In this document: in pieces, positions 11,976 through 24,063 of the stretch
Layout: each line of letters opens with the position of its first letter
How positions within the stretch are numbered: the stretch's first letter is position 1
DNA from: a virus
Lineage: Duplodnaviria > Heunggongvirae > Uroviricota > Caudoviricetes
Reading direction: 5' to 3' (one strand)
Virus record (IMG/VR): IMGVR_UViG_2737471843_000008
Location: 1 to 25,478 of that record
DNA length: 25,478 bases
Program-made: the position numbers and the translations under genes
Notes under the pieces: model-generated
Told to the model about the DNA's origin: nothing
What the model saw: only the letters and a program-made list of their open reading frames with translations
The model's database searches: none

Positions 11976-12287
11976 TCACTGAGATACGGTTAAAAGCGCA
12001 TTTTCCAGTCCGGCAAATGGATCTGAGGTGCCTTCTGTCTGCTCCTTCTCCCACTGAAGAAGCGCATCATTCAGTGATACTTTGACACCCTGCGCACCGT
12101 AAACCGCAGAAACTATCTGGGCAGCCCGGATATCAGCCCGCTCGTCACCCAGCGGACTGAACCTGTCAAATTCTGCCCACATCATGATTTCTGATGCGGA
12201 CATTTCCCGGCGTAATTCTGACAATGTGCGCCCCATCCGGAGCGCCAGCATCATCAGAAAACGTATCCCCGGCATGGCTATTTTTTT
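11976..12287 (-). CDS. T segment of tail assembly chaperone GT, expressed by programmed -1 frameshift from G
   Basis: The -1 frame opens exactly at a run of nine A at the 3' end of G ('GTT AAA AAA AAA TAG') and continues 99 codons. This is the conserved G/GT arrangement of long-tailed phages. Confidence 0.7.
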   Translation of the reverse strand, partial: KKIAMPGIRFLMMLALRMGRTLSELRREMSASEIMMWAEFDRFSPLGDERADIRAAQIVSAVYGAQGVKVSLNDALLQWEKEQTEGTSDPFAGLENALLTVSQ

Positions 12288-12649
12288 TTAACCTCACCGG
12301 CATCAGTAACCAGCTCCAGCGCCTGCCGCAATAGTCGCGTATGCACAGGACCATACACTGCCAGTACCTGTTCCCGATCACCCGCAGAAAATACCTTTTT
12401 CATCCCGGTATCGCACAAAACATCAATGAACAACTCAACATCGGCTTCCAGATCCCGGCGGGCCCGTACCGAAACGGACAACGGCGTTTCCCCCTTTTCC
12501 TGTCTGACTATCTCCTGCCAGCGTAGCCAGGCTTCAGCTGACGGCTCCCTCAGCACTACCGTAGCACCGTCCCATTCCGGTACCACCACTGTCTTATGAC
12601 GAAACCCCGCCATCGTTGACAGCGCCAGCGTTTTTAAATCTTTTTCCAT
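12278..12649 (-). CDS. tail assembly chaperone G
   Basis: 123-aa acidic ORF between the major tail protein and tape measure, ending '...GEVKKK*' on the slippery A-run. Confidence 0.75.
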   Translation of the reverse strand: MEKDLKTLALSTMAGFRHKTVVVPEWDGATVVLREPSAEAWLRWQEIVRQEKGETPLSVSVRARRDLEADVELFIDVLCDTGMKKVFSAGDREQVLAVYGPVHTRLLRQALELVTDAGEVKKK

Positions 12650-22338: not shown

Positions 22339-22554
22339 TTACTCTCCCCGTGCCGCCTTACGCTTGTCTTCTTTAATCTTGAAATAAAGGTTTGTCAGAT
22401 ACGTCAGCAAGCCAAATACCAGACTACCCAGCACACCTATTGCCGCCCACTGTGACGGACTGACCTGATCAAGCCACTGTAAAAACCAGTAGCCAGCACT
22501 GCCTGCGGAGGTGCCATAGGCAATGCCCGTTGAAATTTTGTCCATGGATTTCAT
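22339..22554 (-). CDS. S: holin / antiholin, phage 21 S-type (pinholin) with dual-start motif
   Basis: 71 aa, '[30 protein letters not shown]...' matches phage 21 S as recalled. Met1-Lys-Ser-Met4 dual start; strong 'GGAGGTGAGG' upstream. Confidence 0.88.
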
Positions 22555-22612
22555 AACCTCACCTCCGCAAATAACGGATGGCGTAGTTTTACACTGAGAA
22601 ATGAAAGGGATT

Positions 22613-22636
22613 TGAAAAGAAAAACCCGCAAAAGCG
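22613..22636 (-). terminator. intrinsic terminator upstream of the holin
   Basis: Minus strand 'cccgc tttt gcggg' followed by 'tttttctttt'. Confidence 0.5.
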
Positions 22637-22712
22637 GGCGAAACGATATATACAGAAAGGAAAGCACTCTATCCAACAAACCACCCACAGTTAATCGGAA
22701 TAAAAGCAGAGT

Positions 22713-22786
22713 GCTTATGAATGATCGCCTGCCCGAAGGTTAGTATTTCTGCACAGCAATTTTGCAAAAAAAAGGCGATCATTCAT
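22713..22786. repeat. perfect 16-bp inverted repeat with 42-bp spacer
   Basis: 'ttatgaatgatcgcct' (22713-22728) and its exact reverse complement 'aggcgatcattcataa' (22771-22786). Confidence 0.8.
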
Positions 22787-22847
22787 AACTTAAACGTCTT
22801 TCAGTCACTCCGGGATTTCCCATCATCGCAGACTGAAAGACTCTAAC

Positions 22848-22922
<75 letters not shown>

Positions 22923-22925
22923 ATA

Positions 22926-23001
<76 letters not shown>

Positions 23002-23003
23002 AC

Positions 23004-23080
23004 TGGACCGCCACCGGGGACTCGAACCTCGCACACTCAACTTAAAGGGTTGACGCTCTTTCCTGATGAGCTAGTGGCGG
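23004..23080 (-). tRNA. tRNA of uncertain identity (anticodon loop 'ccUUUaa'; possibly Lys-like, non-canonical C33)
   Basis: 77-nt cloverleaf with perfect acceptor and anticodon stems, T-loop 'ttcgagt', encoded CCA. Position 33 is C and the T-stem has an A-C mismatch. Confidence 0.5.
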
Positions 23081-23081
23081 T

Positions 23082-23157
23082 TGGTGGCCCTTGCTGGATT
23101 TGAACCAGCGACCTGGCGATTATGAGTCGCTCGCTCTCACCACTGAGCTAAAGGGCC
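23082..23157 (-). tRNA. tRNA with CAU anticodon, ileX-like (probable lysidine tRNA-Ile2, analogous to phage ileZ)
   Basis: 76-nt cloverleaf, loop 'cuCAUaa'. Sequence closely resembles E. coli ileX as recalled. Confidence 0.7.
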
Positions 23158-23166
23158 GGGCGCAGG

Positions 23167-23195
23167 ATAATAACTTTACGAAATCAATGTTGCAA
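23167..23195 (-). promoter_or_regulatory. sigma70-like promoter driving the tRNA cluster
   Basis: Minus strand 'TTGCAA' – 17 nt – 'TATTAT', ending about 10 nt upstream of the first tRNA 5' end. Confidence 0.5.
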
Positions 23196-23277: not shown

Positions 23278-23300
23278 AAAAAAACCCGCTTGTGGGCGGG
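23278..23300 (-). terminator. tR'-like intrinsic terminator after the late promoter
   Basis: Minus strand 'cccgcccacaagcggg' followed by seven T, about 60 nt downstream of the putative pR' -10. Confidence 0.6.
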
Positions 23301-23355
23301 TTTTGTTTGCTTTTGCCATCACGTACAAAATCGGCAAAATATCAGATTTGCATGA

Positions 23356-23384
23356 AATATATGCCTTTCAATCTACTTTTGCAA
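23356..23384 (-). promoter_or_regulatory. putative late promoter pR' (with qut region downstream)
   Basis: Minus strand 'TTGCAA' – 17 nt – 'TATATT' at the 3' end of the putative Q gene, followed by tR'. Confidence 0.5.
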
Positions 23385-24063
23385 CACTTTGCTTTGAAAA
23401 TGCCGCCTTTTGTTTTGAACGTGTTCTCATTACAAACAATAAAGCCTCACTATCCAGTCGGTGAAAAATGTGTTTCATTGCAACCCAGTGACGAGTAAAT
23501 GTTTTGGACCAGTTTTTAGTTGTCACTCCCGCCAGTAATGCCAGCTCCTGGTATTCATAACCTTCCCCACCAAAAAGTTCTGCTTTTACTGCCTGCGCCG
23601 CCAGCCAGATTAATTTTTTCAGGCGTTCCTGCGTTTTCCCTGCAATTTTTCTGGTACCTGATTGAGTATTAAATTCATTCCACGCCCACTGTGTTATCGC
23701 GATCTGATATTCCCAACAAATACTCCCGCTGTAACTCCACAACAACCAGGCTTTATGATGTTCTTCAAGAGACAGAACAGCCCGCCGCCACGATGATGTC
23801 GAAAACTCAACCGGGCTGACCAGGGCAATTGATGAGCCTTTCGCCAGTGATTGTTTTCCCGGGATTGGTGGATTATCCCGCGTAATCATTTTTCCGGTCA
23901 CTTCATCTCGGTACCGGATTTTTTTACGCCTGTAACGCCCTGTATCGAACATGGCATTCTCCTGCCAGGCTTCAAGCTGACCTTTTGTTGCCCCACTCAA
24001 ATCAGCGGTGGCGATAATGAGCTGCTCACGCACAAACTGTAAATACTGGTTATTCATGCGCAC
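23368..24063 (-). CDS. putative late-gene antiterminator (Q-like, not lambda-Q type)
   Basis: 231-aa ORF directly upstream of the pR'/tR' signature and downstream of rusA, the canonical Q position. No Cys zinc-finger like lambda Q; assignment is positional. Confidence 0.5.
   Translation of the reverse strand: MRMNNQYLQFVREQLIIATADLSGATKGQLEAWQENAMFDTGRYRRKKIRYRDEVTGKMITRDNPPIPGKQSLAKGSSIALVSPVEFSTSSWRRAVLSLEEHHKAWLLWSYSGSICWEYQIAITQWAWNEFNTQSGTRKIAGKTQERLKKLIWLAAQAVKAELFGGEGYEYQELALLAGVTTKNWSKTFTRHWVAMKHIFHRLDSEALLFVMRTRSKQKAAFSKQSVAKVD

Follow-up and report, generated by a model that had tools for sequence, protein, structure and literature searches.

The window analysed here is the whole 25,478-nucleotide stretch of the IMG/VR virus record IMGVR_UViG_2737471843_000008. 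It is the late region of an Escherichia coli lambdoid prophage. ARAGORN, Pfam and the Prokaryotic Genome Annotation Pipeline (PGAP) place a cassette of four tRNA genes, Ile2-Lys-Thr-Gly, between the genes for antiterminator Q and the holin. At a locus 99.5% identical to the window, the gene order annotated by PGAP is DUF968 protein, RusA, antiterminator Q, tRNA-Ile, tRNA-Lys, tRNA-Thr, tRNA-Gly, class II holin, lysozyme, lysis protein, HNH endonuclease and terminase. The arrangement is that of a lambdoid late-operon cassette: the slot lies between Q/tR' and the lysis genes, an ileZ-type tRNA with anticodon CAU comes first, and a homologue of argN comes second. This second gene in transcription order, which is the third tRNA along the plus strand and follows the Ile2 tRNA after a spacer of 1 nt, is a tRNA-Lys(UUU) with a cytidine at position 33. 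It appears to be a genuine, structurally maintained prophage tRNA gene.

ARAGORN folds the gene (23004-23080, minus strand) into a 77-nt cloverleaf. The Rfam covariance model RF00005 matches positions 23007-23080 with 44.4 bits (gathering score 29, E=1.4e-6). The RNA reads CCGCCAC UA GCUC AUCAGGAAA GAGC G in its 5' part and UCAAC CCUUUAA GUUGA GUGUG CGAGG UUCGAGU CCCCG GUGGCGG U CCA in its 3' part. The anticodon loop, CCUUUAA, consists of C32, C33, the anticodon UUU at positions 34-36, and AA at 37-38; C33 is window base 23047 and the anticodon is 23046-23044. The T stem contains a non-pair, A51·C63 (A51 at 23029, C63 at 23017). An initial annotation of this DNA had described a good cloverleaf, the loop CCUUUAA with C33, and an A-C mismatch in the T stem. 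The cloverleaf is borne out by ARAGORN and the covariance model, the loop by a hand fold and the Rfam alignment, and the mismatch is marked in the same alignment. The pair C1-G72 and the discriminator base U73 had gone unmentioned; the gene also encodes its CCA end. The tertiary core is complete (U8, A14, G18-G19, A21, U54-U55-C56, A58, G53-C61 and a purine at 37), with an unusual Levitt pair, U15/G48, that is also found in argN. Set against a canonical elongator tRNA, the RNA departs at position 33, which is not U, and in the 5-bp T stem, which is not fully paired.

The anticodon stem has five Watson-Crick pairs, so the register of the loop is fixed, with 7 nt closed by C31-G39. An alternative fold that would place U at position 33 was rejected: in a check by hand, a one-base shift broke the anticodon stem, and Rfam and ARAGORN agree on the register. 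Within the cassette, the Lys tRNA has the lowest Rfam score at 44.4 bits, compared with 72.5 for Ile2, 71.2 for Thr and 63.6 for Gly. An identical copy is annotated by PGAP as tRNA-Lys and not as a pseudogene. The phage records ON470580.1 and ON470583.1 annotate the Met/Ile, Thr and Gly tRNAs and omit the Lys tRNA, which is annotated in PGAP genomes and in phage PhiR47_1; whether the gene is annotated varies between pipelines.

The cassette opens with two tRNAs that match ileZ-argN of Shiga toxin (Stx)-converting phages. The Lys gene is 84.4% identical to the argN of Stx2a_F349 and related phages and 80.5% identical to that of VT2-Sakai. The Stx2a_F349 argN is a tRNA-Arg with anticodon UCG and loop CUUCGAA, thus with U33, and it has in common with the Lys gene C1-G72, U73, the D and T arms and the A51·C63 mismatch. 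From this comparison the Lys gene appears to be an anticodon-switched derivative of a lambdoid-phage argN, changed from Arg UCG to Lys UUU. The changes in the loop are U33C, C35U and G36U. The two genes differ at 12 positions. Five of these lie in stems, where pairing is kept or improved in every case: G30-C40 became A30-U40, a double compensatory change, and the wobble pairs U7·G66, U27·G43 and G3·U70 became C-G, U-A and G-C. In simulations, five random stem substitutions occurred without loss of pairing with P ~0.03-0.04. Standard pairs fill 96.7% of the pair cells across ten distinct members of the family, compared with 29-56% in controls with slid partners. Three pairs changed on both sides, and the observed covariation score was reached by 0 of 500 shuffles. 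The cloverleaf thus appears to have been maintained through compensatory change.

The A51·C63 mismatch has a history of its own. Pair 51-63 is G·U in the argN of 933W and VT2-Sakai, G-C in that of Nil3, A-U in one E. coli variant, and A·C in the Stx2a_F349 argN and all other Lys copies. The Nil3 argN has G-C here but carries A52·C62 instead. An A·C pair is able to form a protonated wobble that is isosteric with G·U. The mismatch predates the Lys anticodon, because the Stx2a_F349 argN also has it, and it is an old, tolerated state of a variable pair. The argN alleles of Stx2a_F349, Nil3 and VT2-Sakai score 43.0, 50.4 and 54.8 Rfam bits. We considered C33 as the cause of the low covariance score of the Lys gene and rejected it, since the Stx2a_F349 argN, with U33, scores lower still. 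The low score is a property of the scaffold and not of C33. The same scaffold is present in Yersinia phage YeP2 (L132 401-478; MK733260.1 36569-36646), in the same slot between Q and holin, with the loop CAUUGCC (A33, C37). It is classed by ARAGORN as Gln UUG and escapes detection by Rfam; the only annotation at this place in the record is a hypothetical protein on the opposite strand.

Of 5,426 complete E. coli genomes, 798 (~15%) carry the Lys gene, with an identity of at least 99% in 279, 95-99% in 474 and 90-95% in 45. In a scan of species-representative genomes with an exact-match pattern, which has limited sensitivity, the scaffold was found only in E. coli and Shigella flexneri. From 119 IMG/VR loci, ~115 UUU copies were recovered, which fall into 16 haplotypes. 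C33 is present in every one, and three copies differ at position 32 (C to U or A). Seven argN copies among these loci have U33. A query with U33 gave no hit at 99% identity or more in the 5,426 E. coli genomes, and a search of viral and metagenome collections for a U33 or other non-C33 form of the Lys-type scaffold returned only unrelated tRNAs or chance hits. The initial annotation had left room for a sporadic mutation in a degenerate copy. That source of C33 is ruled out, as every member of the UUU family that was recovered has C33. Both C33 and A51·C63 appear to be inherited traits of the lineage. The majority haplotype, which makes up 69 of 123 IMG/VR copies and occurs in at least 279 genomes, is intact, with an encoded CCA and undamaged T and D arms. 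Two cassette architectures carry the gene: Ile2-Lys-Thr-Gly, as in the window, and the PPompW type, which is Ile2-Lys-Arg UCU.

Part of the family does show decay. A haplotype with C4U, U8C and C11U accounts for 16 of 123 IMG/VR copies. Another, with a 1-nt deletion in the D stem, is found in O157-associated PPompW prophages and, among the genomes listed, also in O111, O145 and other enterohaemorrhagic E. coli-type genomes. In Stx2c_JNE082642 (L134 401-466), a Lys-type copy lying between Ile2 and Arg(UCU) tRNAs has lost its whole anticodon arm and is clearly a pseudogene remnant. The suggestion in the initial annotation that the gene may be a decaying pseudogene therefore stands for these damaged haplotypes. 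Sporadic decay of the window copy is rejected in view of the family-wide C33 and the compensatory changes. In PPompW_132418 (L003 1709-1783) and similar loci, the tRNA-Arg(UCU) that follows the damaged Lys gene ends in CUA, not CCA, and has a T loop changed to UUCGACU, which suggests that in this O157-associated prophage the cassette as a whole is decaying.

The anticodon switch bears directly on identity. C35 is a major determinant for arginyl-tRNA synthetase (ArgRS). The Lys tRNA has lost C35, although it has kept A20. Since ArgRS needs C35 and the tRNA has U35, Arg identity should be abolished. Of the lysine identity set, the anticodon U34-U35-U36 is present and A73 is absent; U73 comes from the argN scaffold. 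The lysyl-tRNA synthetase (LysRS) of E. coli reads mainly U34-U36, with A73, reportedly a secondary identity element, contributing less. Because LysRS reads mainly the UUU anticodon, the tRNA is most likely charged with lysine and would read AAA and AAG. The loop of the host lysT is CUUUUAA, and the prophage loop differs from it at position 33 only. The determinant of N6-threonylcarbamoyladenosine at position 37 (t6A37), 36-UAA-38, is present. This motif is needed for t6A37, and the bacterial enzyme makes no base-specific contact with U33 (PMC13276492).

AAA and AAG together account for 45.2 per 1000 codons in the prophage genes and are not enriched. The corresponding value for K-12 is ~43.9 per 1000. 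ATA, ACA and GGA are ~1.5-1.8-fold enriched in the prophage genes compared with K-12 values. Codon supplementation is thus unsupported as the reason for the Lys tRNA; for the other three tRNAs, Ile2, Thr and Gly, it stays plausible. Several tRNA-Lys(UUU) genes are present in the host, five of them in the one K-12 cluster fetched.

Departures of the Lys tRNA from its host counterpart fall at the cleavage junction of one known anticodon nuclease and at the published determinants of another. PrrC cuts tRNA-Lys 3' of U33 (PMC2610378), and at this junction, 33|34, the prophage tRNA has C33. AriB, of the PARIS system, cuts host tRNA-Lys and tRNA-Thr(UGU) at U36AAUC|A41; U39A abolishes cleavage, A41C reduces it, and U16-U17 of the D loop contribute (PMC12409363). 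The prophage tRNA has G39, U40, U41, C16 and A17, and thus differs at every published AriB determinant. Infection has been rescued from PARIS and PrrC170 by tRNA-Lys genes of T5 and other phages.

These observations suggest a mechanism. What the analysis establishes directly is the gene, its fold, ancestry and distribution, the fixed C33 and the base differences at nuclease determinants; that the tRNA is expressed, is charged with lysine, works on the ribosome despite C33 and resists nucleases is inferred. Because the cassette sits between the late activator Q and the lysis genes, late expression should follow: the Lys tRNA would be made with Q-dependent late-gene transcription, and possibly also from a promoter of its own. 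An Arg body with a Lys anticodon would yield a Lys tRNA unlike that of the host, presumably to the benefit of the phage. C33, on the 5' side of the PrrC cut, may allow escape from PrrC, and G39-U40-U41 with the altered D loop may allow escape from AriB. Lysine decoding would then be kept going during phage growth while host tRNA-Lys is being cleaved. The cassette as a complete anti-PARIS kit of Lys and Thr tRNAs is a weakened idea, as its Thr(UGU) keeps the host AriB site. Our literature searches found nothing on this tRNA, its Arg-to-Lys origin or its C33, and nothing directly relevant on ileZ/argN or on the effects of C33 on PrrC.

C33 in nature has been recorded only for many eukaryotic initiator tRNAs (PMC5041475, PMC11122139), and G33 only in the Candida tRNA-Ser(CAG) (PMC5041475). 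We searched viral contigs for the loop sequence CCTTTAA at the proper spacing from a T loop, excluding the prophage Lys family. Among the 120 matches listed, ARAGORN called at least 19 further tRNA-Lys(UUU) genes with the loop CCUUUAA. These 19 form 16 clusters at 80% identity, on contigs of 28-68% GC. The 11 that were scored reach 52-70 Rfam bits, like their neighbours in large tRNA arrays. No second UUU-Lys gene with U33 was found near the 19 loci in the stretches fetched, and Lys is the sole C33 tRNA in 13 of the 19. The other 947 viral tRNAs called by ARAGORN include 35 with C33, 5 with G33 and 3 with A33; in an unbiased set of viral tRNAs, C33 occurs in ~20 of ~700. C33 is a rare, recurrent variant of phage tRNAs, much commoner than a purine at position 33 and not specific to Lys. 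It need not imply loss of function, because independent phage arrays keep high-scoring C33 Lys tRNAs as the only UUU-Lys gene in the stretches fetched. Taken alone, it is thus not a mark of a pseudogene or of decay.

Two further observations came from these contigs. C33 tRNAs of many isotypes are clustered in certain IMG/VR contigs (loci L135-L373), with three to six each in, for example, L135, L231, L335 and L273. In addition, ten ARAGORN tRNAs (10 of the 120 IMG/VR matches listed) have the anticodon UUA in a loop CUUUAAH and would read the stop codon UAA. They are possible suppressors of phages with reassigned stop codons.

The reading that we favour, tentatively and short of calling it probable, is that the gene specifies a functional, anticodon-switched Lys tRNA that is probably insensitive to nucleases. 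Several observations weigh against it. U33 is near-universal in elongator tRNAs, and C33 reportedly weakened the binding of an anticodon stem-loop to the ribosome in vitro. U73 stands in place of A73. Variation in the sample is confined to 18 of 77 sites; with most sites unvarying, an invariant C33 is expected under common descent, and we do not count its invariance as evidence of selection. The tRNA-Lys genes of phages that have been shown to beat PrrC170 all have U33. The majority prophage Thr tRNA is identical to the host thrU and keeps the AriB site UAAUC|A. In a control scan with positions 32-33 left free, 100 of 100 viral tRNA-Lys(UUU) had U33, and a specific enrichment of C33 in viral Lys tRNAs is unsupported by these counts (0 of 100, against ~3% in other isotypes). 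Where the flanks are homologous, loci diverge from the window by 0.05% in Ile2, 0.7% in Lys, 1.2-1.7% in the downstream spacer and 9-10% upstream; the figure for Thr and Gly is ~0.3-0.4% once the window's private changes are removed. The Lys gene is thus more divergent than its neighbours, and the downstream spacer exceeds it only about two-fold. When polymorphism was compared for signs of purifying selection, the gene was intermediate, and the flanks of the cassette are mosaic. The haplotypes with the D-stem deletion and with U8C are unannotated in the PGAP rows listed and have no Rfam match at E<=1.

Much of this also feeds the main rival, a hitch-hiking relic, which we consider somewhat unlikely. 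Here an argN copy that acquired the loop mutations U33C, C35U and G36U would have lost its Arg function and would persist beside useful or young Ile2, Thr and Gly genes, with C33 fixed by descent only. A relic would account for the lowest Rfam score in the cassette, for a C33 and a U73 that are both unfavourable in a Lys elongator, and for the large share of E. coli copies with further damage, whether a D-stem deletion, C4U/U8C/C11U or loss of whole arms. It would also fit a nucleotide diversity 2-4 times that of Ile2 and Thr, the mutations at invariant bases of Thr and Gly in the window's own lineage, and the aberrant loop (A33, C37) of the YeP2 scaffold that Rfam does not detect. It does less well with the five stem changes relative to argN, which all keep pairing, one of them by double compensation, and with three loop changes that produce exactly the host Lys loop save for position 33 and leave 36-UAA-38 intact. 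The majority haplotype has its CCA and its T and D arms intact, the gene diverges less than the flanking non-coding DNA, and independent phage arrays also hold high-scoring C33 Lys genes without another UUU-Lys gene in the stretches fetched. Distinctly unlikely, and poorly motivated, is a plain supplementary role, in which the Lys tRNA adds lysine decoding for the late proteins and C33 and the A·C pair are neutral quirks without a role in defence. The other tRNAs of the cassette read codons that are ~1.5-1.8-fold enriched, as befits the classic role of the ileZ-argN-argO slot, and C33 occurs in ~3% of viral tRNAs, spread over many isotypes, where A33 or G33 stays below 1%, as one would see for a tolerated variant. 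The Lys tRNA, however, is not explained in this way, because Lys codons are not enriched, unlike ATA, ACA and GGA. One weak extra gene adds little capacity to a host with several tRNA-Lys(UUU) genes, and supplementation leaves unexplained why an Arg scaffold was converted instead of a host lys gene being captured, as was done for Thr and Gly.

A broader form of the nuclease reading, which we regard as unlikely, takes the change of U33 to C as a recurrent phage trick. It would give a UUU Lys tRNA that LysRS and the ribosome can use and that is a poor substrate for PrrC/RloC-class nucleases cutting at or near position 33. In lambdoid prophages the trick would be joined with the swap to an Arg body, which removes the known AriB determinants, and temperate phages would carry anti-defence tRNAs in their late operons as T5 does. 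A bolder and speculative addition is that the same C33 Lys tRNA also tunes a frameshift at a run of nine A residues in the tail chaperone gene. Two open reading frames, 12278-12649 and 11976-12275 (minus strand), match PF06222 and PF06223 (Phage_TAC_1 and Phage_tail_T), the T frame being in -1, and the A9 run at the end of the former looks like an all-lysine programmed -1 frameshift site, analogous to that of lambda G/GT. The classic example of a shifty tRNA is E. coli tRNA-Lys(UUU), at dnaX. As an explanation by itself, a frameshift tuner, in which the C33 Lys tRNA would change -1 slippage at A AAA AAA and thereby set the G/GT ratio, is very improbable. It draws on the G-like gene ending in GUU AAA AAA AAA UAG with the T domain in the -1 frame, on the presence of tRNA-Lys(UUU) in both ribosomal sites during the shift, and on the role of U33 in shaping the anticodon loop (PMC5041475). 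Yet phages with the tail module (~85% identity) carry different cassettes, whose tRNAs are Lys, an argN-type Arg or just Thr-Gly; in a small sample of 11 phage records that contain the module, it is not strictly linked to the Lys tRNA. The PPompW architecture and podovirus-type Stx phages also show the cassette moving independently of the tail genes. An effect of position 33 on -1 frameshifting is without precedent, and the loop has 7 nt, not the 8 nt of a frameshift suppressor. For the more general frameshift or suppressor-like behaviour raised in the initial annotation, the evidence speaks neither in favour nor against. Nor would we expect much from a non-decoding decoy, an un- or poorly charged tRNA-like RNA that titrates a tRNA-Lys nuclease or another tRNA-binding factor, which seems highly improbable. 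Competition of over-expressed viral tRNAs for AriB has been raised as a possible mode of inhibition (PMC12409363), and a UUU loop on a foreign body could be bound without being cut. The differences from host tRNA-Lys at the AriB recognition positions make binding doubtful.

The closest known relative is the argN of the ileZ-argN-argO cassette (933W/VT2-Sakai, Stx2a_F349 and Nil3), which occupies the same slot after Q/tR' and before the lysis or stx genes. Both cassettes have an ileZ-type tRNA upstream, and the second genes share 80-84% identity, C1-G72, U73 and, in the F349 allele, A51·C63. They differ in that argN has the loop CUUCGAA with U33, the anticodon UCG and G30-C40, whereas the window has CCUUUAA with C33, UUU and A30-U40. 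Downstream of the second tRNA, the window has Thr-Gly where the Stx-phage cassette has argO.

A functional parallel is the tRNA-Lys(UUU) of T5, which is non-cleavable and neutralises PARIS (Burman et al. 2024; PMC11464382, PMC12409363). It is likewise a UUU Lys tRNA with an altered AriB site, A39 and C41 in T5 as against G39, U40 and U41 in the prophage, and the D loops of both differ from that of the host. The T5 tRNA, however, has U33 and A73; its phage is virulent and encodes 23 tRNAs, and its action has been proven by experiment. The prophage tRNA is unrelated to it in sequence, has an Arg scaffold and is a candidate for such a role. That phage tRNAs may escape tRNases by changes in the anticodon loop is a general idea already in print: Van den Berg et al. 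2023 (eLife; PMC10264068) proposed that mutations in the anticodon loops of phage tRNAs evade nucleases. The prophage tRNA resembles their cases in having a loop change at the cleavage junction for the same isoacceptor. In that work, coliphage tRNA-Lys(UUU) is listed as an exception without loop mutation that relies on repair by RNA ligase, and C33 and temperate lambdoid phages are not described.

Among cases of identity change, the Candida tRNA-Ser(CAG) with G33 (PMC5041475) also combines an anticodon switch with a non-U33 base; here the base is C, and a new meaning for the codon is not implied. The eukaryotic initiator tRNA-Met is the only well-documented natural class with C33 (PMC5041475, PMC11122139). 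It enters the P site directly, whereas the prophage Lys tRNA has a bacterial-type elongator scaffold with a UUU anticodon. The likeness to tRNA recruitment of the Saks type lies in a body of one identity with an anticodon of another, here from Arg to Lys in a phage gene. In that precedent, E. coli tRNA-Arg(UCU) was reportedly converted to Thr(UGU) by a change of anticodon.

If the favoured reading of a functional Lys tRNA is correct, the gene would be a natural bacterial-type elongator that breaks the U33 rule, carried by ~15% of complete E. coli genomes, and a clean case of a change from Arg to Lys identity by anticodon mutation. The idea of a non-cleavable viral tRNA, known for large virulent phages like T5, would also come to cover ordinary temperate prophages. 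The exchange of C33 for U33 offers a one-nucleotide handle on position 33 as a recognition element for PrrC-like tRNA-Lys nucleases. For annotation, the use of C33 as a flag for pseudogenes would mislabel ~3% of the sampled viral tRNAs.

The features of the cassette and its surroundings are given in Table 1; the promoter and terminator signals are consensus matches only.

Table 1. Position of the Lys tRNA gene and of other features in the window
Feature	Position	Strand	Evidence
tRNA-Lys(UUU), C33	23004..23080	minus	ARAGORN; Rfam; PGAP on identical copy; family covariation
First cassette tRNA, anticodon CAU, ileZ homologue (Ile2, AUA reader)	23082..23157	minus	ARAGORN; Rfam 72.5 bits; PGAP tRNA-Ile; ileZ annotation
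tRNA-Thr(UGU), host thrU sequence with private C56U	22926..23001	minus	ARAGORN; Rfam; host comparison
tRNA-Gly(UCC), host glyT sequence with private G18A	22848..22922	minus	ARAGORN; Rfam; host comparison
Promoter-like site TTGCAA-17-TATTAT, just upstream of the first tRNA	23167..23195	minus	consensus scan; same place as the 'putative tRNA promoter' of VT2-Sakai
tR'-like hairpin and T-run, downstream of Q	23281-23304	minus	consensus match; inferred from lambdoid gene order
Late-promoter-like site, just downstream of Q	23356-23384	minus	consensus scan; assigned by the gene order of lambdoid phages
Antitermination protein Q (late gene activator)	23368..24063	minus	Pfam PF06323, E=1.5e-90; PGAP
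Terminator-like hairpin and T-run, ~210 nt past the last tRNA, closing the cassette	22624..22642	minus	consensus scan
P21-type class II holin, first lysis gene downstream of the cassette	22339..22554	minus	translation; Pfam PF04971, E=3e-36
A9 run GUU AAA AAA AAA UAG, end of the tail assembly chaperone gene	12281..12289	minus	sequence; Pfam

Most prophage copies of the Thr and Gly genes match the host thrU and glyT exactly, which implies that they were captured from the host. The private changes of the window, C56U in Thr and G18A in Gly, hit invariant nucleotides of the D-loop/T-loop elbow. They are minority variants, found at 3 of 85 and 3 of 70 loci, and they co-occur in the window, at one locus of a complete E. 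coli genome (L001, NZ_CP101920.1) and at one IMG/VR locus (L101). These changes point to relaxed selection on the cassette in the window's own lineage.

Weak, sub-threshold Rfam hits to the prophage small RNAs (sRNAs) isrK/isrJ lie at 23279-23351 (minus strand) and overlap the putative PR'-tR' leader. They are consistent with a short, terminated late leader transcript. In phage Nil3 (L130 644-834), a strong match to the sRNA STnc100 (138 bits) is present just downstream of the tRNA cassette; Rfam gives no STnc100 match in the window. The 248-nt trailer between tRNA-Gly and the holin gene (22600-22847, minus strand) matches no Rfam family. It folds into three long hairpins and the terminator, with a minimum free energy of -83.6 kcal/mol (z = -5.7 relative to shuffles), and contains a perfect 15-bp inverted repeat, TTATGAATGATCGCC...GGCGATCATTCATAA.

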